A stretch of DNA of 64,000 nucleotides, taken from IMG/VR virus record IMGVR_UViG_3300007734_000755, positions 32,001 to 96,000 of that record; one strand, 5' to 3'. The notes below the pieces were generated by a model, which saw nothing but the letters and a program-made list of their open reading frames with translations, did not search any database and was not told where the DNA came from. Position 1 is the first letter of the stretch. Each line of letters opens with the position of its first letter. Positions 9,723-60,327 of this stretch are shown here, one piece after another. The stretch is from a virus. Both the position numbers and the translations under genes were made by a program.

Positions 9723-10760
9723 TTAATCTATATCTGAGGGCTTCTTATCTGGTTCGTTCTTATTTCTTGGTTTGGGATCTGGCGAGGGCGGAAGAGAACT
9801 TATATCTTCTCTTCCGCTAATAAAGTCAATAACCGCTCCCATCACATCCAACAACATTGTAACATCAGCTAGGGCATCATGCCAACCCTTGTTTTCTACA
9901 TCGAAAGCCTTTATGAGCTTTCCCAGAGATACTGTTAACTTTCCCTTGTCACTGGTTAGGGCTCTTAGAAGCCGACTATCCTCTGGAGATAGTTCTACCC
10001 CTGCCGCAGAATCCTGTTGAAACTTCTTTAGACCAGGGACCAAAAACTTTCTGAATAGATTAACCGTATCAAATACGATATCATGAGGAGGTTGCATACC
10101 AGCTCTCGTATAGAAGTTATTAACATAGCCGACATCGAACGGAGCATTTTGTGCAACCAATACTCTTCTTGGATATTTATCCAGAAATTCAATAAATTGA
10201 CGAGCAGCATCCACTGGGGAAACAAACTTAACGCTGGCGGGAACATCGCCAAGTTTTGTACCCTCTGGCGCATTAAGGAAGGCAGATCTCTTAGCCTTTT
10301 CTTTATTGGGAGAAACTCCATATCCTGTCATTCTAAATATATCTGGAATGGTTTTGAATGGTAATTTTCCCTGTCTAACTCTCTTAACTCCCGGAGCGGC
10401 ATCAACTGCGGCAGCTCTTGCGTCCCTTACTCTTTCCTGACCCTTCTCTTTTTCCCACCCCATGAATCCCTTGGTTCTATCAGCAAGCTTTACCTTGATA
10501 TTAAACTTTTCTAGAATCTCCGGCTTATCCTTAAACCCATTTACGTTAACTGCTATGGCAGCAATCTGCGTTATTTGGTTATAATCTTTTTCTGAGGCTA
10601 ATCCGGTTGTTTCCGTATCAAAGAATATCCACGTCTTATTGGAGGATTTTTCAATCTTTTCAAGGAACTCTGCAAAACTACTCCCATAATCTTCGGACCT
10701 TAAGACATCTTCTTTCAACGTCTTAAATTTTCTCCAACTTTCAAATAGTTTTATCATCAT
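9723..10760 (-). CDS. DEDDh 3'-5' exonuclease (DnaQ-like) with N-terminal leader
   Basis: ExoI FFDTETTG, ExoII AQNAPFD, ExoIII WHDALAD. Confidence 0.9.
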   Translation of the reverse strand: MMIKLFESWRKFKTLKEDVLRSEDYGSSFAEFLEKIEKSSNKTWIFFDTETTGLASEKDYNQITQIAAIAVNVNGFKDKPEILEKFNIKVKLADRTKGFMGWEKEKGQERVRDARAAAVDAAPGVKRVRQGKLPFKTIPDIFRMTGYGVSPNKEKAKRSAFLNAPEGTKLGDVPASVKFVSPVDAARQFIEFLDKYPRRVLVAQNAPFDVGYVNNFYTRAGMQPPHDIVFDTVNLFRKFLVPGLKKFQQDSAAGVELSPEDSRLLRALTSDKGKLTVSLGKLIKAFDVENKGWHDALADVTMLLDVMGAVIDFISGREDISSLPPSPDPKPRNKNEPDKKPSDID

Positions 10761-10762
10761 TC

Positions 10763-11161
10763 TTAATCTTCCTTCTTATGCCTGTACTGTTGTTTCTTAA
10801 CCTTCTTTTCTTTCTTTGGTTCTTGTTTGGGCTTTTCCTTGGCCACAAATGGCTTGATAGCTCCATCTAATTCCTTGACCGAAATCCAGTCATGACCCTT
10901 AACATAATCCTTGCTGTCATTTTCATATATTTTTACCAAGGCATATTTTTCTTCTGTTTCCTCATCCGTTTGAAACTTAGTAATCTCAAACGGAGAATTA
11001 CCTCCAACTGTTATAGCAAGAGTTCTTCTGCAATATGGAATCTTATCTAACAAATCTGCTTTGGTACAAAAAGAATAAAGAGGACCTGTTTCTATTTCTA
11101 GGTTCTTTTCGAGGTCTTCTTCCTCTGTAAATCTCCTAAAATTTTCTAATAGTTCCCTCAT
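10763..11161 (-). CDS. hypothetical protein with LLENFRRF leader
   Basis: ORF directly downstream of ACTATTTA motif. Confidence 0.65.
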   Translation of the reverse strand: MRELLENFRRFTEEEDLEKNLEIETGPLYSFCTKADLLDKIPYCRRTLAITVGGNSPFEITKFQTDEETEEKYALVKIYENDSKDYVKGHDWISVKELDGAIKPFVAKEKPKQEPKKEKKVKKQQYRHKKED

Positions 11162-11200
11162 ATGTATGCCCCAGGGGTATAGTAGTGGTCTAGTACCCTA

Positions 11201-11208
11201 TAAATAGT
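11201..11208 (-). promoter_or_regulatory. putative phage late promoter ACTATTTA
   Basis: recurrent intergenic motif (see findings). Confidence 0.65.
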
Positions 11209-11238
11209 ATAGAAAAACATAAGACACAAATACTCGTG

Positions 11239-11472
11239 TCAAAGTATCTCCCAACAAACTTCTTCCTTCGAAAGCCAAACGGATTGCGTGTTTTCCGACA
11301 AATCAATATAACATATTTCGAATGCATTATCGAAAAGTTGATCAGAAACGATTCCCTCTAGCTCCCAAGGGTGATCTCTGTTAAACGGAGGAAGAAACCT
11401 TACTTTTACTAGGTCTCCTGTTTGTGGAAGCGGTTTTTGATAGATCATTTTTTCCTTCTTTATCCTCAACAA
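11239..11472 (-). CDS. small SH3-like hypothetical protein
   Basis: TGDLVKVRF...GIV motif. Confidence 0.5.
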   Translation of the reverse strand: MLRIKKEKMIYQKPLPQTGDLVKVRFLPPFNRDHPWELEGIVSDQLFDNAFEICYIDLSENTQSVWLSKEEVCWEIL

Positions 11473-11764
11473 GAACCTTTATTGTATTCCTAGCGTTTGA
11501 ATAAACTGCGGAGAACGGAACATGGGTCTTAACCCAAGTAATCATTTCGTCATCTGACCCAAACGGTCTAGAGTATACTGTTAGTTCTGTTTTGTTTTTG
11601 TAATTAAATCCTGACGCCACTTCTTTCCAATCCTTAAAGGTTGGATCAAGGATCTTGGTATATGCGCCTTTCTTGATACCGTCTATTTGAATACGGTAAT
11701 CGGTTTTATCCTTCATTTTTATATAGGCCCAAACTGTTGCTTTCATTGTTTTTTGTGAGAACAA
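11381..11764 (-). CDS. hypothetical protein
   Basis: ORF; start uncertain. Confidence 0.55.
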   Translation of the reverse strand: MFSQKTMKATVWAYIKMKDKTDYRIQIDGIKKGAYTKILDPTFKDWKEVASGFNYKNKTELTVYSRPFGSDDEMITWVKTHVPFSAVYSNARNTIKVLVEDKEGKNDLSKTASTNRRPSKSKVSSSV

Positions 11765-11806
11765 AATCGTTCTCTCCCTTGTTAATTATTGTTGATGTTT
11801 TCTATC

Positions 11807-12226: not shown

Positions 12227-12266
12227 TATTTTTTTCTCCTTGTTAATGGTTGTTGCCAACCGGCTC

Positions 12267-12295
12267 ATTATAATCTGAGTGTTGTTATCTGTCAA
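12267..12295 (-). promoter_or_regulatory. perfect consensus sigma70 promoter
   Basis: TTGACA-N17-TATAAT. Confidence 0.85.
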
Positions 12296-13034: not shown

Positions 13035-13046
13035 GACTTAGCCTGG

Positions 13047-13754: not shown

Positions 13755-15323
13755 CTATACCTCCACTATTGCATTACTCGTCGTAATGAGGGTTGATACT
13801 ACCGATATTGAATTTCTGACGGCAGCCGTGGTTACTCTAACAGGATCCACGATTCCTGCTTTATATAAGTCTATAATAACTTTCTTCTTAACGTCTAGCC
13901 CAAACCCATATTTTGACTTAAGCACTTTTGACGCAAGTACCTGAGATTCTAGGTCAAGATTGTCGCAAATCTTCTCGAATGGGGCAACTAGGGATCTCTT
14001 AACTATGTCGTATCCTATGGCCTGTTCCTCGGCTAGGGAAGGGGTTTTAAGGGCCTTAGCTGCCTTCAGGAGCGTTGTTCCGCCACCAGGGTGAATACCG
14101 CCTAGCTGTGCTGACTTAACCGCTTCTAGGGCATCCTCAATACGGTGTTTCTTTTCTATAATTTCTACCTCACTCGACCCACCAACTCGTATGGTAACAA
14201 CCCCGCTGGAGAGTCTCGTTATTCGCTCCTGGATTCTCTTACATTCCTCGAGATCATCTGTCTCCTTAATAAGATCTCTAAGCGATTCAGTACGCTTTTC
14301 AACCTCTACCATTGATCCCTTTCCGCCTATAATTGCAGACTGTTGCTTGCCAATTTCTACAGACTTACATCTGCCAAAATCAGAGAGAGTAAACTGGGAA
14401 AAATCCTCCCCCGACTCGCGAGTAAAGAACTTTCCGCCGGTTGCTATTGCAAGATCAGATAAGACGTTTCTTCTTTCCTCTCCATAATATGGGGCCTTGA
14501 CAGCAACAACCTTCATGGAATTTTTTATCGTATTCATGATAAGAGAAGCAAGCAACTGTCCCTCAATATCATCCGTCACGATTATCAACGGCTTCTTTTC
14601 TCTTGCTGCTAATTCCAATACTGGGAGTATTGGTTCGACATATTCAAGTTTCCAATCAGTAATGAAAAGGAGACAATCATTGTGTTTCGCAACCTTTCTC
14701 ATCTCATCAGTTATAAACCTTGACGATAAAAATCCAGATTCAAAGATGAATCCTTCTGTTAGGTCTAATTCTGTTTCATATGACTTAGAATCGTCGATTG
14801 TTATTGCTCCATTCTTACCGGCAAGATCAACTGCCTTAGTTATTAACTTCCCAATAACAGCGTCATTATTAGATGATATGGTGGCAATATTTTCTATATC
14901 AGCAAGGCTGGTTATATCCTTGGAGTTTTCCACAATAAACTTAATAGCATCTTCGCAGGCTAAATCCATACCGCGCTTCATTTCTGTTGGAGAAACTCCG
15001 GATGATAAATATTTCTGAGCCTCACATAACATGCGGTACGCCAGTAGGGTACTAGTAGTGGTCCCATCTCCGGCTTCGTTTGCGGTCTGTAGAGCAGCTT
15101 GCTTTAGAATTTGTGCTCCAACATTCTCAAATGGGTCATCAAAATCAACAAACCGAGCTACAGTTACTCCGTCTTTTGTTATTATTGGTCTTCTTTCTTT
15201 CTGTTGTAGTATTACGTTTCTCCCTCCAGGCCCAAGAGTAGAAGAAACGATATTAGATAGCTTTTCTACTCCGGATAGTATCTTTTCTTGAAGGAGTTTG
15301 TTCCCCTCGTACACCTTTGACAT
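13755..15323 (-). CDS. groEL: chaperonin GroEL (Cpn60)
   Basis: TLGPGGRNV, ITKDGVTVA, AGDGTTT, GGGTTL, GIVDPVRV; no GGM tail. Confidence 0.97.
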   Translation of the reverse strand: MSKVYEGNKLLQEKILSGVEKLSNIVSSTLGPGGRNVILQQKERRPIITKDGVTVARFVDFDDPFENVGAQILKQAALQTANEAGDGTTTSTLLAYRMLCEAQKYLSSGVSPTEMKRGMDLACEDAIKFIVENSKDITSLADIENIATISSNNDAVIGKLITKAVDLAGKNGAITIDDSKSYETELDLTEGFIFESGFLSSRFITDEMRKVAKHNDCLLFITDWKLEYVEPILPVLELAAREKKPLIIVTDDIEGQLLASLIMNTIKNSMKVVAVKAPYYGEERRNVLSDLAIATGGKFFTRESGEDFSQFTLSDFGRCKSVEIGKQQSAIIGGKGSMVEVEKRTESLRDLIKETDDLEECKRIQERITRLSSGVVTIRVGGSSEVEIIEKKHRIEDALEAVKSAQLGGIHPGGGTTLLKAAKALKTPSLAEEQAIGYDIVKRSLVAPFEKICDNLDLESQVLASKVLKSKYGFGLDVKKKVIIDLYKAGIVDPVRVTTAAVRNSISVVSTLITTSNAIVEV

Positions 15324-15783
15324 TAACAGCCTCTTTTAAATATTGTATTAGCGATTCAGTTATATTTCTCTTATCCCTATAAGTGATAGCCTCTTCGAGT
15401 GTATCAAAGAACTTACTTCTTATTAAGGAGCCCTCCTTGATATTCCCGGCCAAATCGTTTCCGGGAACTTCAAGGACAAACTTGCACTTAGCCTTTGGAC
15501 TATATGGCCCGTCTGTTAGAGGTTGTACATTAGGAATGTAATCAACAATGTTGCCATATTTCCCTATAAAAACCATATCCAGCGGAATATAAGTTTCCTT
15601 CATTTGGAAGGTGTGTACTTCTTCATTTGGCATATCAAAGAACATGCCAAAACCATCCTCTAGTTTTGTTTTTCTTGATAAACCGCTTTTTCTCTTCTCG
15701 TCGTCACTCGCAATCTCGACTGCATAATGCTTGTTGCCTAGTTTAATATATCCAAATGGTTTTGTCAAGATTTTCTTTTTCAT
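15253..15783 (-). CDS. DUF192-like protein
   Basis: VEIA...GL...GMFF...MKETYIPLDMVFI...FVLEV. Confidence 0.8.
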   Translation of the reverse strand: MKKKILTKPFGYIKLGNKHYAVEIASDDEKRKSGLSRKTKLEDGFGMFFDMPNEEVHTFQMKETYIPLDMVFIGKYGNIVDYIPNVQPLTDGPYSPKAKCKFVLEVPGNDLAGNIKEGSLIRSKFFDTLEEAITYRDKRNITESLIQYLKEAVNVKGVRGEQTPSRKDTIRSRKAI

Positions 15784-16718
15784 TGTTTCTTTTTCTCTGT
15801 TAAATGAGATGGGATAGCGCCAGTGGTCGTTCCTATTTCATAATCATATTCCATGGCTGGATTTATTGTCATTCTTACTGATGTGATAGGGGTGTTTGTA
15901 AAGGACAATCTTACAAACTTACGAAATACCAGCCTTGATGATTTCGTTGCAGTGTGAACATGGTAAGCATTCATTAGATATACTTTATTAGCTTGCAGAT
16001 AATAACATAGATTTTCATCGACTTGTTTTCCTACCCATTTAAAAATATTATGTTTTGCTTCATTAGCTCCTTCCATATTAAAGGTCATTGTACAAAATTT
16101 TGTTGGGGTTTGATCCGCCCATATAAATTGAAAATCTACATTCTTTTTATATGGGACTTCTGTTCCTTGCATACCGTCAATGTGCCACCCAGTTTCTCTT
16201 TGGGATTTATCGGCTTTTACTTCCATTTGGTCTATTGTTATATAACCATATCTATTATTTGTATCTAACCCCATGTCGTTTGCATAATCATAACATTCGC
16301 TTATGAATTTTTTTATTTCTGGATATTTTTCTAATCCTCCTAGAATAAATTCGCTAGAGTTAGCCGTTTTTACCATAAAATGGTTAACTCTTGTATCACC
16401 TAGATCTCCAAAATTAAAAGATCTCAGCTCTATTGGCTCTCTTGTAAATCTTAAATGTTTGAGATCAAATGGAGTTTGTGTTTCTTTAACGAAGGTAAAC
16501 TTATTTAAATCATCTGTTAGTTGTTCGTTTTGATAATCCCAAATTAGATGATTTTCATCATTCATATAATCTTTATCTTTCTGATACTTCTGAAGCATGT
16601 TTATGATTCCAGGATAAAATCCAGTTTCTAAATATCCAAGAGTGTGAACTTCTTTGAGAAACTTACTCTCATTTATGACTTCAACATACCTTCTCCACGA
16701 TTCAAAAAGTTGCTTCAT
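15780..16718 (-). CDS. putative 2OG-Fe(II) dioxygenase-fold protein with N-terminal leader
   Basis: WHIDG (HxD), distal HVH, RKFVRLS; leader MKQLFESWRRY. Confidence 0.6.
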   Translation of the reverse strand: MKQLFESWRRYVEVINESKFLKEVHTLGYLETGFYPGIINMLQKYQKDKDYMNDENHLIWDYQNEQLTDDLNKFTFVKETQTPFDLKHLRFTREPIELRSFNFGDLGDTRVNHFMVKTANSSEFILGGLEKYPEIKKFISECYDYANDMGLDTNNRYGYITIDQMEVKADKSQRETGWHIDGMQGTEVPYKKNVDFQFIWADQTPTKFCTMTFNMEGANEAKHNIFKWVGKQVDENLCYYLQANKVYLMNAYHVHTATKSSRLVFRKFVRLSFTNTPITSVRMTINPAMEYDYEIGTTTGAIPSHLTEKKKQ

Positions 16719-16778: not shown

Positions 16779-17867
16779 TTATTGTGTTATTTCTTTAAAG
16801 CTGTCTTCGATGTTATCAATGGTGCCTATTATGCTCATTTTGTTCTCAGAACTGCTATTCACGGCGAAGAAGTTTAACATTTGTTTGTTTAGAGCGTTTA
16901 CTTCTTCTAACAGCTTTCCTATTCTTCCTAGTTCATGGTCTCTATACTTTAGCTTAGCTTCATATATAATTTTAGCACTAATGCTTATATCTCCCTCATA
17001 GCTGCACTTGGTATTAGAAAAGTTAGCAAGTGTGGCATTAAGCTGAGTTAGATTGTAGACCTCGCTCAGAAAATTCTGATCAAAAAGTTCTGTTGTTGTT
17101 TCGGCTCTGGCTGGTCCAAACTTTTTCTTCATGTGTTCCAACATAAGGGCTGCAAGTTCCTGCCCTCCAATTTGTTCGGGACGCTGAAAGTCAGAAAAAT
17201 ATCTGCCATACATTTCTGTTGATTTCTTTATTATTGAGTAGAAGTTTTCTGGTTCTACAAGGAATGAATAGAATTTAAAATTCGGTGGGCTCTTTAGGCA
17301 AATAAAATAAACGACATCCTTACCCTCAGCCATCATTCTCAGCAGATTATGCATAGACCCATCAAGTCTATATCTTCTTTGAGCAGAATAGAACTTATAA
17401 CTAAACCTAGCAAGAACTCTTGGTTCTACTATCTCAGCATCAGTAATGTCTGACCCGTTAAGTTGAACTCCTCTAAATAATACAGTAAAGAGAGTTTCAA
17501 ACTTGAAGCCCGCCTGTCTCGGATCTTCATTCTCGTATTCTCTTAGGATTTTATCAAACTCCTGTAGGAAAATAAAGGTTGCAACAAACTCATCCGTTCT
17601 TAGATCAGTGTGTCCTCTTGGATCCAAATATTTCTTTATCGTTTCTAGTCTATTAAAGAAATATTTATCGCTGATTATTGAATGATATATTGGAGTTGTG
17701 AGAAGTTCGTCAAATTCTCTTCGGAATTCCGATCTCCCCGACCCTACGCCGAGGGTTAACTCATCAACACCGAAAGACTCGCTTAATCTTGCCTCAATTA
17801 ATCTGACAAGGAGTTCGTTTCCCTTCTTGGGAGCATAATACTCATCTACCAACTTCTCTAATTCCAT
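16779..17867 (-). CDS. putative PD-(D/E)xK nuclease-like protein
   Basis: AGFKFETLF...ITD...SYK pattern. Confidence 0.45.
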   Translation of the reverse strand: MELEKLVDEYYAPKKGNELLVRLIEARLSESFGVDELTLGVGSGRSEFRREFDELLTTPIYHSIISDKYFFNRLETIKKYLDPRGHTDLRTDEFVATFIFLQEFDKILREYENEDPRQAGFKFETLFTVLFRGVQLNGSDITDAEIVEPRVLARFSYKFYSAQRRYRLDGSMHNLLRMMAEGKDVVYFICLKSPPNFKFYSFLVEPENFYSIIKKSTEMYGRYFSDFQRPEQIGGQELAALMLEHMKKKFGPARAETTTELFDQNFLSEVYNLTQLNATLANFSNTKCSYEGDISISAKIIYEAKLKYRDHELGRIGKLLEEVNALNKQMLNFFAVNSSSENKMSIIGTIDNIEDSFKEITQ

Positions 17868-17881: not shown

Positions 17882-17888
17882 TAATTAG
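17882..17888 (-). promoter_or_regulatory. putative late promoter variant CTAATTA
   Basis: just upstream of GAGG RBS of 16779..17867. Confidence 0.5.
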
Positions 17889-17950: not shown

Positions 17951-18865
17951 TTACTTCTTCTTTGCAGGGAAACCTTTCTTCTTTTCTGTCTCTTTCTTGT
18001 CGGCTTCCTTCTTCTTCATTTCCAATTTCTTCTTCTTGTCAGCTTCTTTCTTCTTGTCTGTTGCCTGCTTTTCCTTGATCATTGAGGTCTTTCCGGCTGG
18101 AGCTTTCTTCTTTGCTTCAATCAATCTACGCTTTACTCTTGATGTAATCTTGTTGACCAATCTATTAATTGCCTCTTCCATTGGTGAGGGGGCCGGAGGC
18201 ATTTCTTCTTCATCTTCTGTTGGAGGCATTTCTTCTTCGGTCTCTGGGGCTTTCTCGCCATCTTCTACTGTAACCTCAACGCCAAGTGTTTCCTGAACCA
18301 ACTCTCCCAGCTTCTTTACAAAGTCCTTGATCTTAGTCTCGGTCTCGTCGCCATCTGGCTCTTCGTGCATTTCCGGAGCTGGTTCAACTTCTTCCTCGTC
18401 ACCCTTTGGGTCTAATTCGGCCTGTTCAAGAAGTTTCTTGAGCTTCTTCATTGATCTGCGCAGATTTTCTTGAAAAGACATTTGTGGAACTGCTTCGTCT
18501 AGTTCCTCCTCGTCTTCCATTTCCTCATCCTCGTGGCCCTCGTCCACATCACACTCACAATCCTTAAACGGAGCACCACATTCTGGGCATTCTTCGTTTC
18601 CTAGATCAAATTCGCTATCTAGATTTTCACCCTCATCGCCAAATTCTCCACCCGATTCATCGGAAGGGAACTCATCATCGGTATATGTAGAGTGGAATCC
18701 TTCATCTCCCAACGAAGCATCAAAGGCGTTCCCTTTTGGATCATCTGGGTTAAAATTCTTATGTCCTTCTCTTAGGAATGGATTTGTTAATGCTCCAATC
18801 CCAGCCAATCCCATCATTCGTCTTGTGACTGACTCATTTAGCAGTAAATCTTTTCTCTTTGACAT
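17951..18865 (-). CDS. highly acidic protein with Lys-rich tail; prohead core/internal head protein candidate
   Basis: LLNESVTRRMMGLAGI start, D/E-rich middle, K-rich C-terminus, ACTATTTA upstream at 18893. Confidence 0.6.
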   Translation of the reverse strand: MSKRKDLLLNESVTRRMMGLAGIGALTNPFLREGHKNFNPDDPKGNAFDASLGDEGFHSTYTDDEFPSDESGGEFGDEGENLDSEFDLGNEECPECGAPFKDCECDVDEGHEDEEMEDEEELDEAVPQMSFQENLRRSMKKLKKLLEQAELDPKGDEEEVEPAPEMHEEPDGDETETKIKDFVKKLGELVQETLGVEVTVEDGEKAPETEEEMPPTEDEEEMPPAPSPMEEAINRLVNKITSRVKRRLIEAKKKAPAGKTSMIKEKQATDKKKEADKKKKLEMKKKEADKKETEKKKGFPAKKK

Positions 18866-18910
18866 GTTCTATTTCTCCTAAGAAATCACAAATAAATAGT
18901 AGTGAGAATT

Positions 18911-22498: not shown

Positions 22499-25400
22499 CT
22501 ATCCGACCATCTTCCAATTCTTAGAAATGCCCATACAAGAATAGCTCTTATAGTTCTCATCATAATCTAGTTTGGCAACATATGGTCTGTTTAAATAGAT
22601 TAAATCCTTTTCAAGATCTACTCCCCAGCACTTTATTTCAAACGTCTTTGAGGAATCATCCGCTACCTGCACTGCATAATAGTTCTTGCTATTTTTTGAC
22701 TTCTTTACCTCAAAGGACATTGGGATAAACCAACAAACTCCAAGTTCTGCATCAAACTTGGAGATCGGATAAATCATCTTATCGTCCAATCTCTTATAAA
22801 GTTTAGGATCCATAACCAACTCTATGGGGAAGAATCCCAACAACTCCTTACAATTCTGTATTACCTCGGCCTTTGAGAAGTCTCCCTCTGACTTATAGAG
22901 CTCAATATATTCATCAAACTTCTTCTTTGTCTTTGGTCTTTCTGCGCTAAACGACATCCAAAAATGCTTTGTTCCTGTAAATCGATTGTCTATCAAACAA
23001 TCCAGCGCTCCGCATCTGGCAAGAGCATCAAACCCTCTCTTGTTGAGCTTGGAATAAACAATGTCCTCGTTGAAAAGCATTTCATCAATCGTCTTGAATG
23101 GCCGATTATTTAGGACTTGTTCGACAGCCTTATCTCCCAATCCCTTGATTGAGTTTAAAGGTTGATAATAAGTCTTACCATCGGTTGAAACACGCCATTT
23201 ATCTCCAGAATTATTGATATTTGGGGACTCAATTTTATAACCCAGAGACTTAATAGTAGAAATGGCCTTAGCCTTTCCATCATCATCCTTGGTTTCTTCA
23301 TCTAGGTACGACGCAATCCATTCAGATGGATGATAAGTAAGAAGGTATGCACACTGATAGGAAAGGATGCTATAACAAACGGCATGAGATTTATTAAAGC
23401 CGTAACCAGAGAAGAACTCAAAGGTTTGCCATAGCCTCTCCGCATCATCAACTTGAATATTCTTTTCAGCACATCCTTCCATAAACTTAACATAAATCCC
23501 GTCCTTTACTTCATGACCCTTTCCGGTGCCCTTCTTGGTAAGTAGTTTTCTAAGTAGATTGCCCTCGTCAAGAGACAAGTCCTTTCCTAGCTTGTGGGCA
23601 ATCAACGCAATCTGTTCCTGAAAGATGAGAAATCCAAAGGTCTCCCTTGTTATTTCTTCTACAATTGGATGCAGGTATGAAATACTTTCCGGAGATTCCT
23701 TGGCCTTAACATAGTTCTCGTCAACCTTAGCCGATAACGGGCCTGGTCTAAAGATCGAGGTTACTGCCGATAGGTCAATGATACTCGTTGGCTTTGCCTT
23801 CTTACAAAACTCCTGCGCGCCTCTTTCTGCAAATTGAAAGACTCCAACCCAGCTTCCGTCATGAAATACGTTTTTATAAACTTTTTGGTCATCAAAGTTT
23901 ATGACTGACGGGTGTAGTTTTTTATCATAGAAATCTCTTATCTCCTTAAATGTTGGAGATGGATTTCCGTTCTTGACGAGGATCCTAGAAATAGTATTTT
24001 CTATTAGTCGAAGGGTTGTTAATCCAAGAATGTCGAACTTGATAAACCCTAGAGGCTCCAAGTGTCTTACATTCTGGCCCTCACTCCATGGGGTTTGTGT
24101 AACACCGCCAGAATTTATCAGCGGCATATATCTTGAGATATTTTCAGATACAATTACGCCACCAGCGTGCCTACTCGCACTTCTCACTTGTCCCTGTAAG
24201 ACACCAATGCTCGTCTTTATATCTGGATATTTCGTAAGAAAGCCTTGCAGGCTTTCTGAATATTCCATCAACTCCTCAAAGGTTGGCACGTACTTACCAG
24301 CAGTTAGCCCGTGTTTTTCCTTTGCGGCAACCATCGCTTCCTTTTCCATCACTGATGTTACATCATTTACTTCCTGATATGGAACGCTATAAAGTTTTGA
24401 GAGATCCTTGATAAGAGAACGAAGTTGTAGAGTGTTCCAGTTTGAAATTGGAACAACGCTGTCATTTCCCCATTCATCAATAAGCATCTGTTTCAATGCC
24501 ATTGGATCAGAGGTATCAAAGTCGATATCTGGATAATCCTTTGCGTTTTTTTGTAGGAACCGGCTAAACAACAGACCGTATTTAATTGGATCTAGTTGAG
24601 TGATATTCAGCAAATATGATACCAAGGAACCTGCTGCCGATCCTCTACCTGCTCCGACTAGCTGATTCTCCACTGCCTTATCGGCAATAGCCTTCATTGT
24701 CAGAAAGTACTTAGAGAATCCGCGATCCTTAATAATCGATAATTCTTCTCTTATTCTTTCAATATATTGCTTATTGGTTCCAAAGCCAAATTTCTTCATT
24801 GATTCAGAACACATTTCAACAAGGGCCTGAAAGTCAGTCTTGCCCTCTGGCACAACAAAGCTTGGAAGTCTCACCGATGAGTCTGGCAGAAAGGATTCAA
24901 TATGAGCGTGAGCAATTTCATAGGAGTTTTCGATTGATTCAAGTACTACTTGATCGTCATAATCACAACCTACCTGTTCCGAATACTTCTTGTATGCATC
25001 CCACATTTGTTGCCCGTTCTTGGGGTACAGCTCACACTTAAGATCTTCACGGCTCTTGGGAAGAGTTTCTAGAGAGAGATTCTTTGATCCAAGCCAACCA
25101 AGCATCTTATAAATTTCTCTTTCCTTCCACAACTCTGGTCTTGGATAATGGCTATCGCAGGTTGATACGAGCTTAACCCCGTTCTCTTTTGCAACGGAGA
25201 TGATAAGGTTGTTGATGCTGTGTTGTTCTGAGTAGGCATTCCATTGTAATTCGCAATAGAATCTGTCTGAAAAGATTTCCTTAAAACTCTTAACAGTTTT
25301 ATTCATCTCCTCGAATACTTTTTCTTCTCCCTGCTCCTTGTAGGCCCAAAACGATTTGGATAAAATCCCACCCATGCAGGCAGAAAGAACTATTACCCCC

Positions 25401-25912
25401 TCGTTATGTTCCTTCAACATTTCGTAGTCGATTCTTGGAAATCTGTAAAAATTTCCTGGTCTGTAAGATTTTGATACTAGTTGATAGATATTAGACAGAC
25501 CTACTGGGTTTTGTGCCAGCAGTACAAGATGCGCTCTGAAATTTAGAGAATTCTTTTCCAGTTGCTTGGATTCCTCTTCGTCTTCTACTACTACACCGCT
25601 CTCCTCATTGTCATCCTTCTTTGTCTTCTTATCTGCCTTGCTTTTATCATAGGCGACTTTCCAATCTGATATAGATGGGACAAAATAAGCCTCAACTCCG
25701 AAGATTGGCTTGAAGGTCTTTCCCTCGGCCGCTAATTTCTTTGAGTGCAAAACTTGATATGACAGGCCGTTCATGTTACCGTGATCTGTTAGTGCTAGGG
25801 CATCTGCTCCATTCTCCATGGCATAATCAATATGCTGGGAGGGGTAGCCTAGGCCATCAAAAACACTGAAGGTTGAGTGTCCGTGCAGGTTGGTGAATTT
25901 AATATTTGGCAT
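22499..25912 (-). CDS. dnaE: DNA polymerase III alpha subunit (family C)
   Basis: PHP motifs HGHS/TDHG/DSH, GRGSAAGS, PDIDFD, RHAGG, KFDILGL, FSGYGFNKSHA; no intein. Confidence 0.97.
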   Translation of the reverse strand: MPNIKFTNLHGHSTFSVFDGLGYPSQHIDYAMENGADALALTDHGNMNGLSYQVLHSKKLAAEGKTFKPIFGVEAYFVPSISDWKVAYDKSKADKKTKKDDNEESGVVVEDEEESKQLEKNSLNFRAHLVLLAQNPVGLSNIYQLVSKSYRPGNFYRFPRIDYEMLKEHNEGVIVLSACMGGILSKSFWAYKEQGEEKVFEEMNKTVKSFKEIFSDRFYCELQWNAYSEQHSINNLIISVAKENGVKLVSTCDSHYPRPELWKEREIYKMLGWLGSKNLSLETLPKSREDLKCELYPKNGQQMWDAYKKYSEQVGCDYDDQVVLESIENSYEIAHAHIESFLPDSSVRLPSFVVPEGKTDFQALVEMCSESMKKFGFGTNKQYIERIREELSIIKDRGFSKYFLTMKAIADKAVENQLVGAGRGSAAGSLVSYLLNITQLDPIKYGLLFSRFLQKNAKDYPDIDFDTSDPMALKQMLIDEWGNDSVVPISNWNTLQLRSLIKDLSKLYSVPYQEVNDVTSVMEKEAMVAAKEKHGLTAGKYVPTFEELMEYSESLQGFLTKYPDIKTSIGVLQGQVRSASRHAGGVIVSENISRYMPLINSGGVTQTPWSEGQNVRHLEPLGFIKFDILGLTTLRLIENTISRILVKNGNPSPTFKEIRDFYDKKLHPSVINFDDQKVYKNVFHDGSWVGVFQFAERGAQEFCKKAKPTSIIDLSAVTSIFRPGPLSAKVDENYVKAKESPESISYLHPIVEEITRETFGFLIFQEQIALIAHKLGKDLSLDEGNLLRKLLTKKGTGKGHEVKDGIYVKFMEGCAEKNIQVDDAERLWQTFEFFSGYGFNKSHAVCYSILSYQCAYLLTYHPSEWIASYLDEETKDDDGKAKAISTIKSLGYKIESPNINNSGDKWRVSTDGKTYYQPLNSIKGLGDKAVEQVLNNRPFKTIDEMLFNEDIVYSKLNKRGFDALARCGALDCLIDNRFTGTKHFWMSFSAERPKTKKKFDEYIELYKSEGDFSKAEVIQNCKELLGFFPIELVMDPKLYKRLDDKMIYPISKFDAELGVCWFIPMSFEVKKSKNSKNYYAVQVADDSSKTFEIKCWGVDLEKDLIYLNRPYVAKLDYDENYKSYSCMGISKNWKMVG

Positions 25913-30567: not shown

Positions 30568-31221
30568 CTAGGACAGTTGAAATATTTTTGATAAAGCCTC
30601 AGCGATAGCGTTCGCAACTTCTCTGTGTTCCTTCTGTGTTGCCACATCCTGCCGAACTTCAAGATAGTGGATCCACGATCTAATTGATCCCTTCATATAC
30701 ATTCTAGTCTTGGTTAAGCCCTCTGGGAGAACCTTACGAGCAACTTCCTTTGCAATCCCCTTATCTATGGCCCACTCATAGGCTTCCTTGGATGACTTCA
30801 ACACGCTCTCTTGATAGATCTTCCATTGAAGTTTTAGAGAATCATCCTCAATTTCTATTGAATTTTGACGATTTTTATCGTCTTGCAGTCTCGCATCTGA
30901 AAGCTCAAAAGTATCATCGAGATCTCTAATGTCTGAATATCGTTGCGAAAATTCTTGGAACGAAAAGCTCCGGTGTCGTAGGATTTGTCTCGCTATATCT
31001 CTCGTTGTTTCTATTTCGAATGTTGCATCAACCATTTCTAGTGGTGACCAGTGGTGATTCTTTATAAGATATTTGATAAGGCGATCTGACGTTTGTGTGT
31101 TCATCTGGTTAGATGGATTTGATACTCTTGCGCAATAGGAAACGAGATCCTTGATATCTTCTATATCTGTTTCCTCTAACTTTCCCGCTGGCTTTGTATG
31201 TGATATTAAGCTAACCTTCAT
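30568..31221 (-). CDS. thyX: flavin-dependent thymidylate synthase
   Basis: HWSPLE, RQILRHRSFSFQEFSQRY, TQKEHR. Confidence 0.97.
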   Translation of the reverse strand: MKVSLISHTKPAGKLEETDIEDIKDLVSYCARVSNPSNQMNTQTSDRLIKYLIKNHHWSPLEMVDATFEIETTRDIARQILRHRSFSFQEFSQRYSDIRDLDDTFELSDARLQDDKNRQNSIEIEDDSLKLQWKIYQESVLKSSKEAYEWAIDKGIAKEVARKVLPEGLTKTRMYMKGSIRSWIHYLEVRQDVATQKEHREVANAIAEALSKIFQLS

Positions 31222-31242: not shown

Positions 31243-31271
31243 AGTGTCTCATCTAGGGAGTTAGTTGTCAA
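31243..31271 (-). promoter_or_regulatory. sigma70-like promoter
   Basis: TTGACA-N17-GACACT. Confidence 0.5.
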
Positions 31272-32044
31272 CTGTCTTTTTCTATTCTAGATAGAAGTTG
31301 GTTTCTCTTCCAATGAAGTCCGATTGGATTTTCAACTTCTTTATTGACAAAATTATTTACTAACGAAGTTGCTTTTTTTATCGAGACAAAATTAATCCCG
31401 GCATCGGGAAGCTCCTTGGCATCATTGTTGATAACAATGAAATTATCTTCTCCAAAATCACTCTTATATTTGTCCATGTTAGCGACACACATATGCCACA
31501 GATTTGAGGTGAGATCCGCAGGAAGAACACGATCTCTTTTTTCGTTCCTGTCAAGAGCCGTCTCCAGACTCGTATAGACAAAGATCATTGAGCAGTCATA
31601 TCCTTGTCTTACTAGCTCCTTTCTTATTCCGTTGGTAATTTTATAATCACCGCCCGTTCCATCAATAACAATTCCAATTCTTTCCTTGGAATATGAGTTA
31701 AGCAATCTATTCGTCTTATCCTTTGCTACAATTCTAGGTGAATTTGGCCCACGATTAAGCTTATGAAATTCATCTGGTGGGAGATCCGCAAGCTTAGAAG
31801 GGTCTACTCCGGCTTGTTTTAATAACATTGTATAAACAGTATCGGAATTGGACATCTTTAATCCAAACCCGGTTAGGGTGTTCATGTTTCCCGACTTGTA
31901 TCCAAATATTTTATTTGTAACATAGGACTTTCCAGATCCAGGTCCCCCGGCCAAGAAAACAGCCTTGAGAGCCCCCTTATCATAAAGCCCCTCGGAAAGA
32001 ACAGATGTTATCTCCTCTTGGATGAGTGTCAACAAATTCTTCAC
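31268..32044 (-). CDS. zeta-toxin-like/AAA_33 P-loop kinase with N-terminal leader
   Basis: FLAGGPGSGKS, NSD, IVIDGTG, ALDRNEKRDR. Confidence 0.8.
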   Translation of the reverse strand: MKNLLTLIQEEITSVLSEGLYDKGALKAVFLAGGPGSGKSYVTNKIFGYKSGNMNTLTGFGLKMSNSDTVYTMLLKQAGVDPSKLADLPPDEFHKLNRGPNSPRIVAKDKTNRLLNSYSKERIGIVIDGTGGDYKITNGIRKELVRQGYDCSMIFVYTSLETALDRNEKRDRVLPADLTSNLWHMCVANMDKYKSDFGEDNFIVINNDAKELPDAGINFVSIKKATSLVNNFVNKEVENPIGLHWKRNQLLSRIEKDS

Positions 32045-32292
32045 TTGTCCTCTTCTTCCTTTTTGATGCCTTGTGTGCCTGTGTACCCCTGTACCCCACC
32101 ACCGGAGCAGGAGGACATCTCCTCAATGGTTTCTGAATCTTCGGATTTCTCTTCTTCCTTCTCGGAAACAATGATTTCCTTGCCAGTTTTCTTGTCTATA
32201 TTCTTCTTTGAGGACTTTTTTTTCTTGTCCTCCTTGAAGGTATTTTCAGCCAGAAACTGCTTCCATCTATTATTAATATCTCCATAATCCAT
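32041..32292 (-). CDS. small charged protein with NRWKQFLAE leader
   Basis: ORF after CTATTTA at 32311; GTGA overlap with kinase. Confidence 0.6.
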   Translation of the reverse strand: MDYGDINNRWKQFLAENTFKEDKKKKSSKKNIDKKTGKEIIVSEKEEEKSEDSETIEEMSSCSGGGVQGYTGTQGIKKEEEDK

Positions 32293-32321
32293 AGTATTTT
32301 ACCTCAACAATAAATAGAGTA

Positions 32322-37440: not shown

Positions 37441-39293
37441 TTTAATTCACAAGCTCCACCGCTACAGGCTATCTCTCCCTGTAGGTTTGTTTCATCATCT
37501 GTCTCAAAGACCATTGAGAGATCAACATTCTTTAATGTTTCCATTAGGGATTCAAATTCCTCCTTAGAACAATCAGTAAACGGCATTTGCCTATAATTTC
37601 CGCCATCGTGTGGAATGACACTAAGACCTGAATAATAATTTTTATTATTCCACATCCATTCTCCAACTTCGTCCCATCCGCTATCCTTGATAGCTATTGT
37701 TGCAGAGACGTTATGCGTGTTTTGTCCCTTTAGATGTCCTGGCTTTATCCAACTATTGTGAATTTTCTTAATTCTTTCTAGAAGATCTACCTCACTCTCT
37801 GTTCTAAGGATAGCGCCTTCTGGAGCTTTTTGCGGAACAGAAATAACAGCAGAATCGTGTGGTCTAAAATATTCATCCTCAACTAGTTCTGGGTGGTTGT
37901 CGGACAGGTATCTATAAATGGCCTCGCCCTTACCAACACGAAGTCTGCGAATATAAAAATCGTTGTGCCAGGCATGAACACCGCTGGAGGTTCCCAGGAT
38001 TAGGCTTGTAGTTCCAGACGGCTTAACAGTAGTTACTCTTGCTGCCTGATTAATTCCTATCAGAGCAGCAACTCTCTTGTTCTCTTCTATAGCTATCAGG
38101 GCTGCCTGCCCCATGTCCAACTCTGTTACCTTGTTAGACGCTATTCCGGTCATCCCAATGCCCAACAGAGCCTCTTTCTCGGTTGTACGACGCCACACAT
38201 CTCTTAGATAGTGAAAGTCGGTATATGAGGCTTGTAGTGTGCCTATGAACGATGCAGCTTTTACTCTAGCATTGAAGTCCTCTTGAGATTCAAGATCACT
38301 AACGTTTGTCTCGACAAGATTACAGAATTGGTTACTTCTTAGTGCAATTTCGGCACACGGGTTTGTTCCCCATTCCTTATCGTTTGTAAAGAAGATTCCT
38401 GGCTCGCCAGCTCCGGAGGCTCTTATTCTATCCCAAATTCCAAGAAAATAATCCTTGGTGATACGGTGTCTAAGAATCACTGCCGAATTGTTTGCTCTTC
38501 CTCGGTGAGGGTGGGTTTCCGACCAGTTCCCAGACTTGGCAGCGATCATTTCATCATCATCTGCGCTAAACAAACAGATAAGAGCAGAGCGCCTAATTCC
38601 GCCTGCAAGTACGGCATCCGCAATGTAGCAAATAATATCATGTACCTCAATTGGTTGAAGTTTGTCTCCCTCTTCCTTTCCATTTAAAACTCCCTCTATT
38701 TTTAATAGACATTCCTTTAGTGGTTGTGGGCCGGGAGCCTTACCTCCGGCGGTTATAAGTCTCGAACCCTTTGCTCTAATATCTCTGAAGTCAAACGTAA
38801 GACTTGATCCGCCCTCAAAGTACGATTTCATTAACGATTTGACCGCATCGGCCCATCCCTCAATGCTATCTCCAACAAGATATCTTCTCTTCCTCTTACC
38901 GTTTGGTTTCTTTATTTCTGGAAGTTTCTCAACGTGATGTTTTTGGACCGAATATCCTACGCCTGTTCCGCCCAATAGGAGGAACATGATTTCGTTGAAT
39001 GCCCGATAATCATCCACCGCCGTGAATGCACAATTAAAGATTCTTGATGGACATACGTCGATCGCCTTCCCGGCAAACTGCATTGATCTCATAGATGGCA
39101 AGACCTTTCTTTGAAGGACAAACTGATACGCCTCTTTGATTTGTTCTGAAAGTTCTGGAAACTTGCGTATATGCATTTGCATATTTCTATCTACTGTTTC
39201 CTCGTATGTCTCTCTTCTAAGCTCTTCTCTAAGATAGCGAGCATACTTCATATGATGCGTAATGTCGCTCAAAATTTTCTGTGAAATATCCAT
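37437..39293 (-). CDS. nrdJ: class II (B12-dependent) ribonucleotide reductase
   Basis: PSMR, FNC, GGIRRSA, TNPCAEI, VKPSGT, C-terminal ACSGGAC. Confidence 0.93.
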   Translation of the reverse strand: MDISQKILSDITHHMKYARYLREELRRETYEETVDRNMQMHIRKFPELSEQIKEAYQFVLQRKVLPSMRSMQFAGKAIDVCPSRIFNCAFTAVDDYRAFNEIMFLLLGGTGVGYSVQKHHVEKLPEIKKPNGKRKRRYLVGDSIEGWADAVKSLMKSYFEGGSSLTFDFRDIRAKGSRLITAGGKAPGPQPLKECLLKIEGVLNGKEEGDKLQPIEVHDIICYIADAVLAGGIRRSALICLFSADDDEMIAAKSGNWSETHPHRGRANNSAVILRHRITKDYFLGIWDRIRASGAGEPGIFFTNDKEWGTNPCAEIALRSNQFCNLVETNVSDLESQEDFNARVKAASFIGTLQASYTDFHYLRDVWRRTTEKEALLGIGMTGIASNKVTELDMGQAALIAIEENKRVAALIGINQAARVTTVKPSGTTSLILGTSSGVHAWHNDFYIRRLRVGKGEAIYRYLSDNHPELVEDEYFRPHDSAVISVPQKAPEGAILRTESEVDLLERIKKIHNSWIKPGHLKGQNTHNVSATIAIKDSGWDEVGEWMWNNKNYYSGLSVIPHDGGNYRQMPFTDCSKEEFESLMETLKNVDLSMVFETDDETNLQGEIACSGGACELK

Positions 39294-39360: not shown

Positions 39361-39933
39361 TTATATTTTCTGTAGGAGAGATTTCAGAGACTTAAGAAGC
39401 GTCTCCTCAATTTTCTCTCTTGGGGCAAAACTGCCCTTGGGCCTTGGAAGACGAGTTGGCGCGTCCTTAATGGTAGAATCTAAACTATTATCTAGGGAAC
39501 CAGAGGGGACAACCTCTCTTTCTGGCTTCGTGGCGGCACTTAGCTTGTTCTCGGAATCAACCGTCTTTGCAAAGGCATCTCTTCTGGCATTTGCCTTGGC
39601 GACAACTTTTGTAAAGATAGGAAGATTTCCCATTACTTCTTCCTTGGTGCAATTCTTCTTTGTAACCTTGCTTATAGCAGCAAGAGTCTTTGGACCAAGA
39701 TATCCGTCCGGCTTATTCTTAGTACCGTTTTCTCCGGTAACATTATATCCCATTTTGATTAGGTCAGATTGTAGTTGTCCAATCGGGCTATTCTCAATTC
39801 GGCTTGAATAGTGTTCTGCTCCCTTTGAAGCAAGTTGTCCTGCGCCGGGTCCAAGTTTCCTACCGGCGTCCTGTTCACTTAGGACCTTCTTGATCTCTTC
39901 CATAATAATCTTTCTTAAGAAACTTTGTTGCAT
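39361..39933 (-). CDS. peptidoglycan-binding domain protein with N-terminal leader
   Basis: QLQSDLIKMGY...DGYLGPKTLAAI; leader LRKIIMEEIKKVLSE; ACTATTTA at 39956. Confidence 0.75.
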   Translation of the reverse strand: MQQSFLRKIIMEEIKKVLSEQDAGRKLGPGAGQLASKGAEHYSSRIENSPIGQLQSDLIKMGYNVTGENGTKNKPDGYLGPKTLAAISKVTKKNCTKEEVMGNLPIFTKVVAKANARRDAFAKTVDSENKLSAATKPEREVVPSGSLDNSLDSTIKDAPTRLPRPKGSFAPREKIEETLLKSLKSLLQKI

Positions 39934-39969
39934 ATAGAATATCTCCTGTGTTTTATAAATAGTTTGATT

Positions 39970-58203: not shown

Positions 58204-58234
58204 CTAACGAGTCTCCTATGATTCTAACTCTTAG

Positions 58235-58242
58235 TAAATAGT
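58235..58242 (-). promoter_or_regulatory. putative late promoter ACTATTTA
   Basis: upstream of tail sheath RBS. Confidence 0.7.
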
Positions 58243-58258
58243 TTGGGTAAGATGAAAA

Positions 58259-59104
58259 TCATTGTCTAAATGGGGTATCTAGATTGCCAAGGGTATTTAT
58301 GTCCCCCAATACGACTCGTTCCCTCTGTATTCTCACTTTTGCAGGGCCTTCCCTATAGACAACGTTTGGAGTTTGTTGTGATGTCTGTGAAGTTGTGGTA
58401 AACCCAAGAACATTGATAGAGAATTTTGCCTCATATATTTTTTCTGTCTCCCCTATGTCCGGCGAGTTTGATGAGAATCCGGTATCCTTTGGCATAAAAA
58501 CCTCATATTTGAATCCGTCATATTTTATAGTAAAGACCTGGGAGTTGTAGGGAACGACAACTCTTTGTATTGGAGCCATCATTTCATTGATCTGTTGCAT
58601 ATAGATCGCCTTCAATGAAATCTCGTACTTCATATCATAATAGGAGGGATAGGGAACAAATACATATTCATTAACCACCTCTATATTATCCATCTTAAAA
58701 TTTTGTTGTCCACGGACTCGATTGGACTTGGCATTGGCGAAGTTTGATGTCTTTTCCTGGTTTATTTTTCTCCAAAAACCAAACTGACTGTTCTTATAAT
58801 CTAAGCCCTTTCTTATTATTCCCGGAAGCGGGCGATTTCCGACATCTGTTAGCTGAACACCGGTTCTTTGCAGTTGAATCTGTGGAAAGTCTAGGAATCC
58901 ATTTTCATCCCTCATGTCATTCTGTTCTTTGATTTGATAAGCTCTCTCCCTGGAAAACCAAACGACAGGAACCTTTCTCATGCCATCGTTGGTAATGGTT
59001 TGAATGTCCAGGGTTTCGTTTAACCAAGTAAACAGCGCCATGTCCACGGTCTCGAATGTGGAAGTTGGAGTTGAATTATTCTGATTTTTGTATGACGTAT
59101 CCAT
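58259..59104 (-). CDS. tail terminator / sheath stabiliser (gp15-like)
   Basis: KVPVVW..RER, P..YDMKYEI, QQINEM; position between neck and sheath. Confidence 0.65.
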   Translation of the reverse strand: MDTSYKNQNNSTPTSTFETVDMALFTWLNETLDIQTITNDGMRKVPVVWFSRERAYQIKEQNDMRDENGFLDFPQIQLQRTGVQLTDVGNRPLPGIIRKGLDYKNSQFGFWRKINQEKTSNFANAKSNRVRGQQNFKMDNIEVVNEYVFVPYPSYYDMKYEISLKAIYMQQINEMMAPIQRVVVPYNSQVFTIKYDGFKYEVFMPKDTGFSSNSPDIGETEKIYEAKFSINVLGFTTTSQTSQQTPNVVYREGPAKVRIQRERVVLGDINTLGNLDTPFRQ

Positions 59105-59106
59105 TG

Positions 59107-60327
59107 TTATCCTCTTCTATATATGATTCTGATTGTCCTTCCTTTCCTCCCTATTGATTCTGTCATGCCCCTCTGCTTCTTAGCCTGTTCCCACCGCTCT
59201 TTTGTTGGATAACCTATTCCATATAAATGATATAATGGTTCGTGTTCATTTCCAAACACATCAGTAAATGATTTTGTATAAACCACAGCTGGGCCGTCTG
59301 TTCTATGAATTTGCCCATTTAGATACCACACCTCTATTCCGTTGCTAAGTATGTCTGCTGGTCCATCGCGTCTATCAAGACGCCCATTCAGAGTCCACTT
59401 CTTATTTCCCCTTGTTTCAGTGTACGTTCTTCCATCTCCTAGGTTTATGTGTTTATATTCATTTGTTTGGCTTATTGTATTCTTGGGTAATTTATCCGAT
59501 AACTTCTTAACTATTTCGTTTAAACGGAAGAACAGATGACTTTCTTCGAGATCATCATCTTCCTTATCCTTGAACTGGCTCTCCTCTCCATCATAGTGAA
59601 ATTGATATTTTTCTTCTGGGTTTTTCTTTGAGATGAAGATGATCAATGGTTTTTCCCTGGAGTGATATTTTTCATAATATTGCAGTCCAGGAGCTGCCGT
59701 ACACCACCTTGTACCCTTCCCCAGCTGTATTGCTGCTGCTTTATTTTCTGGTATAAAAATTTCCCAGTTCTCATCCTCATAGATTTTGTTGATTATCGCA
59801 TTTTTTTCTGCCTTCTTTTGTTTATATTCTTCATAGGCTGGCATTGCATCATCAACAATTTTAACGAATTCATCTGTTGTCTTTATTGAATATATATCCT
59901 GTTTGGCTAATATTCTGCCGATTCCCTGTTCCTTGATTTGATAGAAGGTTTCTAGTGGACGGCTTAGTATAATATAAAATACCACATCTTTTTCATTAAC
60001 GACACTAGACAGAAAAACGCTTATAAGCCAATTGAGGGCTTCTGCTCGATTTGAAGGAGAAATATCGTCTGGAATGGCGCTTTTTATCATTTCTTCCATT
60101 CCCTCGGTGCTATATTTTGCGTTCAGAGAGTCTTCTGCTATTTCTTCCTTTGTCATACCCATTCTTATAGATTTTTCATCAGATACGAATCTAGCGAAAT
60201 ATTTTATAGAGTTTCTCATAACCTCTTCGCACTTTGACTTAAATGCCTTAGACTTGAATCTTGGGAGGACTTGTTCCATCTTTATTTCATTAAGAATTCT
60301 TCTATTTTCAAATATAATTCTTATCAT
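59107..60327 (-). CDS. protein with G.GT.WC domain and HRxDGPA repeats, N-terminal leader
   Basis: LGKGTRWCTA...KYQFH; LDRRDGPA, IHRTDGPA. Confidence 0.7.
   Translation of the reverse strand: MIRIIFENRRILNEIKMEQVLPRFKSKAFKSKCEEVMRNSIKYFARFVSDEKSIRMGMTKEEIAEDSLNAKYSTEGMEEMIKSAIPDDISPSNRAEALNWLISVFLSSVVNEKDVVFYIILSRPLETFYQIKEQGIGRILAKQDIYSIKTTDEFVKIVDDAMPAYEEYKQKKAEKNAIINKIYEDENWEIFIPENKAAAIQLGKGTRWCTAAPGLQYYEKYHSREKPLIIFISKKNPEEKYQFHYDGEESQFKDKEDDDLEESHLFFRLNEIVKKLSDKLPKNTISQTNEYKHINLGDGRTYTETRGNKKWTLNGRLDRRDGPADILSNGIEVWYLNGQIHRTDGPAVVYTKSFTDVFGNEHEPLYHLYGIGYPTKERWEQAKKQRGMTESIGRKGRTIRIIYRRG

Follow-up and report, generated by a model that had tools for sequence, protein, structure and literature searches.

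How do proteins as unrelated as a DEDDh exonuclease, an oxygenase-like protein and a P-loop kinase come to share short N-terminal leaders? The question is raised by a stretch of 64,000 nucleotides (the window), corresponding to bases 32001-96000 of the 114,837-bp viral record IMGVR_UViG_3300007734_000755. IMG/VR classifies this record as a linear fragment, its completeness is about 62% (CheckV estimate), and the minus strand carries nearly all of its genes. Judging from these genes, the source is an uncultured, distantly T4-like myophage. A preliminary description of the window had listed nine proteins with such leaders, divided them into two classes and proposed that they load accessory enzymes into the phage head for injection with the DNA. 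All nine N-terminal strings are indeed encoded by the genes named, on the minus strand. As shown below by sequence comparison, the leaders are protein-level, modular and exchangeable elements that each end in a protease motif. By analogy with phage T4 they are probably capsid-targeting propeptides.

The T4 record provides the reference. The internal proteins IPII and IPIII begin with MKTYQEFIAE↓A (the arrow marks the cut), IPI begins with M-K-T-F-K-E-F and is cut after I-T-E, the gp24 leader ends in L-L-R-E↓S and gp23 is cut after F-L-T-E. In the T4 tag, residues 4 and 7 direct targeting while residues 8 and 10 direct processing, the residues being an aromatic at position 4, Phe 7, Ile/Leu 8 and Glu 10 (PMC9026906).

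Regular expressions were used to search for leaders in all six reading frames of the 115-kb record. The class-A pattern (class 1 of the preliminary description) has only three matches, all at residue 3-4 of a coding-strand open reading frame (ORF): LFESWRKF in the exonuclease (345 amino acids (aa), 9723..10760; features located here and below are on the minus strand unless stated otherwise), LLENFRRF in a 132-aa protein (10763..11161) and LFESWRRY in the oxygenase-like protein (312 aa, 15780..16718). The class-B pattern hh-x-EE-h-xx-hL-x-E (the former class 2) has six matches, all within 20 residues of the start Met. Two are inside the window, in the kinase (258 aa, GTG start, 31268..32044) and in a 190-aa protein (39361..39933), and four outside it. 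Such strict leaders end at residues 13-25 in L/I/V-x-E. When the first 45 residues of 82 proteins were compared all-against-all, 8 pairs scored at least 36, compared to 1 in each of two internal control segments, and the highest-scoring pairs were those of the leaders. Independent hidden Markov models (HMMs), seeded solely with the leaders of the exonuclease family of other phages, recover the oxygenase-like protein (class-A model, E = 2.9e-6), an 83-aa highly charged protein at 32041..32292 (E = 0.003 with a model of class C, see below), an ORF truncated at the edge of the contig and a small core protein (E = 2.7e-4). A tblastn search of cultured phages with a 26-aa leader returned one, non-significant match. 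In the six class-B leaders, 65 of the 93 pairwise-identical residues (70%) are encoded by different codons, implying selection at the protein level. This rules out an RNA or DNA element, or a recent duplication, as the source of the similarity.

The leaders of six of the nine listed proteins are thereby supported beyond chance (9723, 10763, 15780, 31268, 39361 and 32041) while three (59107, 16779 and 17951) are not. The classes also required revision. The 83-aa protein, initially assigned to class 1, belongs to a separate T4-like class (class C): its leader R-W-K-Q-F-L-A-E↓N spaces W, F, L and E exactly as Y4, F7, I8 and E10 are spaced in T4. A T4-like tag, W-K-H-Y-L-N-E↓S, also begins the contig-edge ORF (L001:1-114, truncated by the contig end), 7 residues after the Met. 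Class-A leaders include W-x-x-F with 2-3 extra residues before L-x-E compared to T4. In the 132-aa protein, the first gene product of the exonuclease unit, the class-A-like leader matches the regular expression at residue 4 and continues to F-T-E; its HMM score (E = 1.7e-6) was obtained with its own sequence in the seed, and the protein has no Pfam or PHROG match. Further leader genes, six or seven in number and missed by the first reading, lie outside the window. Class-B leaders are carried by a 143-aa protein with a clear PG_binding_1 domain (7.9e-14; L001:1562-1975), a 141-aa protein (L001:3207-3605), a 44-aa ORF (L001:3044-3178) and a 144-aa acidic protein whose gene adjoins the capsid gene (L003:289-723). 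Two small core proteins, both encoded next to the protease gene, carry the leader recovered by the HMMs (L003:6071-6268) and a related N-terminus (L003:5110-5475). The sequences thus point to about a dozen tagged proteins with unrelated bodies, which have differing Pfam or PHROG assignments or none; no polyprotein architecture was observed in this phage. Since the record is incomplete, more cargo genes may be missing.

The exonuclease family is the most informative. The protein matches RNase_T (Pfam PF00929, 8.9e-14, 52.8 bits against a cut-off of 24), and D48, E50, D209, H294 and D299, the residues of the DEDDh Exo I-III motifs, are invariant. Its leader occupies residues 1-17 and ends in L-K-E↓D, and the body starts at about residue 44. 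Of 349 detectable homologues the best 120, 115 of them full-length, were used for leader analysis. In these, the bodies are conserved from the Exo I motif onward and the N-termini fall into four unrelated classes: an L-F-E-N-W-R type (81 sequences), K-W-Q-Q-F-L-T-E (13), M-K-I-T...L-R-x-I-I (9) and L-L-R-E-Y-I-R (5). An [LIV]-x-E motif ending at residue 10-25 is nonetheless found in all 115 full-length homologues, with L (59), I (47) or V (9) at P3. In the alignment the P1 Glu (E17) is nearly invariant across the leader classes, on a par with the catalytic residues. In an AlphaFold2 model, residues 1-16 are unpacked with a predicted local distance difference test score (pLDDT) below 50, compared to more than 90 for the body. 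A scan of viral contigs for the context of the one leaderless homologue (P0078) found nothing, and a search for the exonuclease in cultured phages matched two distant uncultured records only.

The kinase family shows a similar pattern. The protein is Zeta-toxin/AAA_33-like (Pfam Zeta_toxin, PF06414, 3.3e-8, 33.6 bits against a cut-off of 22.3) and has an invariant Walker A motif, G-G-P-G-S-G-K-S. Its class-B leader ends in L-S-E↓G, 14 residues before the P-loop strand. About 4,900 homologues were identified and leaders were counted on 111 with an N-terminal P-loop. In 109 of the 111, [LIVM]-x-E directly precedes the body, with L in 83 and I in 18 cases. These leaders vary from 3 to 36 aa and belong to several classes, including short ones of the M-I-K-L-K-D-I-L-N-E type. 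Some homologues carry K-T-F-E-Q-F-I-A-E↓G, a near copy of the T4 tag. Cultured carriers of the kinase are Pelagibacter phage HTVC008M, with a kinase leader that ends in I-L-K-E↓G, and Methylophilales phage Melnitz, whose kinase leader is M-K-T-F-A-E-L-Q-E↓G. An S77 protease is encoded in 13 of 18 long viral records with a tagged kinase, including all four of those at least 90% complete, and in none of 14 control cellular genomes.

The oxygenase-like protein illustrates how a tag might be acquired. Its class-A leader (LFESWRRY...I-N-E↓S) is followed by a linker of about 60 aa and a body at residues 75-306, for which about 390 homologues were found. Most of these are 230-260 aa long and start at the body, in agreement with the expectation that homologues lack the leader; a class-A leader is present on the two closest only, so that the tag looks to have been added in this phage group. 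H179, D181, H255 and R266 are invariant in 50 sequences and correspond to the H-x-D...H iron triad and the 2-oxoglutarate (2OG)-binding Arg which the oxygenase superfamily carries on a double-stranded beta-helix fold. The AlphaFold2 model has a pLDDT of 93, and its top 25 Foldseek matches in the PDB are all 2OG oxygenases, with weak scores (template modelling score ~0.3, E ~3e-4). As there is no Pfam match, the protein is called 2OG/Fe(II)-oxygenase-like at the superfamily level only.

Is a suitable protease present? The head genes lie just beyond the right end of the window (locus L003) and include a gp23-type major capsid protein (Pfam Gp23, 3.8e-70), a gp20-type portal (Portal_T4, 3.3e-72), the large terminase and a gp21-type prohead protease. 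Tail sheath, tube and hub genes are encoded within the window. The 198-aa protease (L003:5475-6071) matches Peptidase_S77 above the cut-off (PF03420, 4.2e-24) as well as phrog_207 (3.1e-51), is 34% identical to T4 gp21 and retains the catalytic His and Ser motifs, GEL-x-HP and GVSSRGLGS. The capsid protein itself includes L-L-R-E↓A, which aligns with the T4 gp23 maturation cut F-L-T-E↓A, and across 66 relatives this site invariably reads LL(R/K)E↓(A/S/T). Among cultured phages, the closest capsid proteins are those of Flavobacterium phage immuto, Microcystis phage Mel-JY01 and Rhodothermus phage RM378 (40-47% identity); at least 600 uncultured relatives are present in IMG/VR.

The neighbourhood of the protease gene in relatives is also informative. 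In six related loci leader genes directly adjoin it, most of them between the protease and a conserved core gene, inside the head operon. One locus has four class-B genes around the protease and another a class-A gene. The bodies of these tagged proteins have no BLASTP match in the present genome. In phage immuto (L089:2697-3997, plus strand), two adjacent unrelated genes have the leader N-F-(N/D)-L-(R/K)-x-F-L-(T/V)-E↓N-K-L-T in common, yet another leader class; their products are a PduO-type adenosyltransferase-like protein of 333 aa and a protein of 99 aa. The constancy of this neighbour bears on the proposal that the leader serves to be recognised by a modifying enzyme, either of the type acting on ribosomally synthesised and post-translationally modified peptides or of the radical S-adenosylmethionine type. 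One enzyme serving many substrates through a common N-terminal tag follows a known logic, and the partner could be encoded in the missing part of the record. No conserved modifying enzyme adjoins the leader genes, either in this phage or in its relatives; the neighbour that recurs is the prohead protease. Target patterns of Cys, Ser or Thr are absent from the leaders. The radical S-adenosylmethionine version was rejected, as no such enzyme was matched in the record. We regard a recognition tag of this kind as highly improbable.

A second feature common to the leader genes is their position downstream of the element CTA[AT]TTA. In the whole record it occurs 30 times on the coding strand compared to 3 on the other, and about 20 copies lie 20-60 nucleotides (nt) before a start codon. 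It precedes the sheath gene (CTATTTA at 58235..58241, 38 nt upstream), a neck gene, the operon running from a 140-aa gene via the scaffold to the capsid gene, two small membrane-protein genes and every leader unit. CTATTTA is located 46 nt upstream of the 132-aa gene (11201..11207), 25 nt upstream of the 83-aa gene (32311-32317), whose stop overlaps the kinase start, and 29 nt upstream of the 190-aa gene (39956-39962). The claim that leader genes follow this motif is borne out: all ten strict ones are first or second after CTA[AT]TTA, compared to 23 of the 149 other genes (Fisher p = 4e-8; p = 2e-8 within the non-structural region alone). In 80 related loci the motif is found 388 times on the coding strand and 40 times on the other, with a peak 20-50 nt before ORF starts. 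The T4 late promoter TATAAATA was rejected as the late promoter of this group (21 coding-strand copies versus 93 on the other strand in the same loci). From its position, CTA[AT]TTA may be the late promoter. Sigma70-like sites, defined as TTGACA-N17-TAnnnT, number 29 on the coding strand versus 4 on the other and are interleaved with the CTA[AT]TTA units. They never directly precede a leader gene, in line with the earlier statement that sigma70-driven genes lack leaders. The late unit of the 190-aa protein is immediately followed by a sigma70-like site before a 618-aa gene at 37437-39293.

These observations are consistent with the following scheme. The tagged proteins would be transcribed late from the clade-specific CTA[AT]TTA upstream element and made alongside the head proteins. 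Their amphipathic N-terminal helix would bind the scaffolding core of the assembling prohead. Once the shell is closed, the S77 protease would cut after the leader-terminal L/I/V-x-E, as it trims the major capsid protein, and the freed proteins would remain in the head and probably be expelled with the DNA. The predicted cargo comprises the DEDDh exonuclease, the 2OG/Fe oxygenase-like protein, the Zeta-like P-loop kinase, two putative peptidoglycan-binding proteins and several small charged proteins. Those refutation tests of the capsid-loading proposal that are possible in silico all came out in its favour, with three listed members now doubtful and the classes revised. Core binding, cleavage, head retention and ejection are proposed by analogy with T4, whose tagged proteins IPI and Alt are ejected to exert their action in the next host (PMC9958956). 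By the same analogy, the two putative peptidoglycan-binding proteins may plausibly be delivered into the next host, since they would find nothing to bind in the cytoplasm.

The cargo list is also where a role confined to the head has to be considered. In this alternative the leaders are still prohead propeptides removed by the protease, and the proteins act inside the head during assembly before being degraded or retained, with no injected payload. Possible roles include core building blocks, DNA-end or DNA-condensation factors and the clearing of mispackaged nucleic acid. The two conserved small core proteins beside the protease with their related N-termini would fit such a role, as would the small size and high charge of several tagged proteins, which resemble scaffold components in this respect. 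T4 gp22, gp67 and gp68 are indeed cut to fragments and lost (PMC5694885). Against this, it is hard to see what folded enzymes such as the exonuclease, the kinase and the oxygenase-like protein, or peptidoglycan-binding domains, would do in a closed capsid, the last making sense solely outside the cytoplasm, and the fate of T4 IPI and Alt provides a precedent for ejection. A purely in-head function therefore seems rather unlikely.

Several points weigh against capsid-targeting propeptides as such. The h-x-E triplet is short, and chance alone should produce it about once in 55 residues. The Glu of the kinase leader abuts the conserved body (E-G-V-Y-D) and could be a body residue. The position of CTA[AT]TTA is the sole basis for considering it a late promoter. 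A literature search found no virion proteome, cleavage assay or packaging test for this phage or its relatives and, most subscription journals being outside the search, no paper on leaders in this lineage, on these enzymes or in marine or cyanophage T4 relatives. Two further points carry more specific implications. Hundreds to thousands of phages share the exonuclease and the kinase complete with their leaders, in contrast to the fast-evolving internal proteins of T4, and the N-terminal helix could belong to the function of these enzymes themselves. Moreover, class B, the commonest leader here, lacks the aromatic residues of the T4 tag.

Both observations would also fit shared helices that serve another purpose, such as oligomerisation, docking to a hub like a chaperonin or the replisome, membrane association or stability control, with h-x-E arising as a by-product of composition. 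Retention of the leader in nearly all exonuclease and kinase homologues is what would be expected for part of a working enzyme, and a GroEL-type chaperonin candidate, read from the N-terminal translation alone, is apparently encoded at 13755-15323 of the window. On the other side, P3 is almost exclusively L or I and matches the T4 protease rule, and the P1 Glu is nearly invariant despite unrelated leader classes. Exchange of classes on one body would not be tolerable for a structural part of an enzyme, some leaders almost reproduce the T4 tag as defined by experiment, and leader genes adjoin the protease gene in relatives and travel with S77-encoding genomes. Taken together, this makes a purpose unrelated to the prohead quite unlikely. 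The capsid-targeting interpretation may tentatively be extended, by us as a possibility rather than an expectation, to a sizeable and abundant group of uncultured aquatic far-T4 and pelagic T4-like phages: these would use exchangeable capsid-address peptides, any gene becoming virion cargo by gaining a leader class and the late element, with the whole enzymes and peptidoglycan binders of the cargo list injected with the DNA as first-strike effectors and the leader classes tracking their docking partner in the scaffold core.

What, then, of the remaining listed genes? The 190-aa protein retains its class-B leader (IIMEEIKKVLSE followed by Q), matched by both the regular expression and the HMM. 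Its peptidoglycan-binding label is only partly sustained: the region resembles PG_binding_1 weakly, with 19.7 bits, below the 23-bit Pfam cut-off. The 362-aa protein (16779..17867) is encoded by the first gene of the oxygenase-like unit, 21 nt downstream of CTAATTA (17882-17888). It has two h-x-E sites in its N-terminal 30 residues, and this N-terminus is kept in 11 homologues with no leader exchange among them and no HMM signal; we consider it doubtful as a leader. It was previously labelled nuclease-like, a label which finds no support as there is no family match in Pfam or PHROG. The very acidic 304-aa protein (17951..18865), preceded at 34 nt by CTATTTA (18893-18899), is likewise a doubtful case that includes merely isolated h-x-E triplets. 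It has a scaffold-like Cys motif, C-x-x-C...C-x-C, in common with a 575-aa scaffold-like protein (L003:2644-4371), with a weak local match (E = 0.003). An R-M-x-x-L-A-G-I motif is present in both, N-terminal in the 304-aa protein and at the extreme C-terminus of the 575-aa protein. From these sequence features the former may be a paralogue of the scaffold, with a separate late motif for its expression. The N-terminus of the 575-aa protein, L-L-E-Q-A-I-L-D-A-K-E, resembles that of T4 gp22, L-K-E-Q-L-I-A-E-A-Q-K. Its immuto counterpart bears the annotation "DNA polymerase phi-like", for which an acidic composition is the probable reason.

The 406-aa protein (59107..60327) is encoded by a gene inserted between two conserved neck/tail genes. 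None of the 80 related loci has a homologue, and in these the two flanking genes directly adjoin each other; the gene looks to have been acquired by this lineage within the neck/tail operon. Its leader-like string IIFENRRILNE has no leader-HMM match and was rejected. The protein shows a weak PcfJ-like match, below the cut-off, and ends in repeats similar to the motif H-R-D-N-D-L-P-A. This motif occurs in near-identical form in ten small ORFs (window positions 453, 624 and 29656 and seven sites in L001/L002, genome 17005-30831), which form a family of small MORN-like proteins across the early region. Between the capsid and neck genes, a 688-aa protein (window 62126-64000, continuing into L003) has a lipoprotein-like signal-peptide start and SGL/beta-propeller-like repeats (PF08450, 4e-9), an unusual component for a head-neck operon. 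Two other candidates, again from N-terminal translations alone, are a DnaE-type polymerase with a PHP domain (22499-25912) and ThyX (30568-31221).

Neither the T4 tag nor the idea of its recruiting varied cargo is new; both are established (PMC9026906). What is added here are new leader classes, a clear exchange of leaders on one enzyme body and a specific list of predicted cargo; the gain lies in breadth and predicted cargo, not in principle. The tag has been suggested as an evolutionary device for recruiting new cargo (PMC9026906), and leader exchange on a single enzyme body provides comparative support for that suggestion. Should the tags function as they do in T4, the capsid passengers of a very common group of uncultured aquatic phages could be predicted from sequence alone. 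Whole enzymes would be delivered at the moment of infection, giving a testable list of candidate early-acting effectors, and the leaders could serve as natural address peptides to bring proteins into phages other than coliphages.

The closest known system is the capsid-targeting sequence of T4 IPI, IPII, IPIII and Alt, which is cut by gp21 after L/I-x-E. As here, a tag of 10-20 residues is carried by unrelated proteins, and both phages have a gp21-type S77 protease and a gp23-type capsid cut site at a homologous position. The T4-like spacing aromatic-x-x-F-(L/I)-x-E is found in one leader class of the present phage. In both, cargo genes are scattered outside the head cluster and include at least one enzyme, and the unrelated leader genes beside the protease in relatives follow the same pattern as the variable internal-protein genes of T4. 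The two systems differ in that several leader classes coexist here, the commonest, hh-x-EE-h-xx-hL-x-E↓Q, having no T4 counterpart, and in that the upstream element is CTA[AT]TTA instead of the T4 sequence. The predicted cargo, with an exonuclease, an oxygenase-like protein, a P-loop kinase and peptidoglycan-binding proteins, also differs. Unlike the hypervariable cargo of T4, two cargo enzymes are widely conserved with their tags, in a system known so far from its sequences. A more distant parallel is provided by the giant phages phiKZ, 201phi2-1 and SPN3US, in which the propeptides of ejection proteins are processed at S/A/G-x-E by a gp21-related protease (PMC5694885). There, many inner-head proteins, including enzymes, are cut after Glu and paralogues share N-termini (PMC5694885). 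However, the giant-phage propeptides mostly exceed 100 residues and have a small P3 residue (A, S or G), whereas the leaders described here are 10-25 residues long with L, I or V at P3, as in T4.

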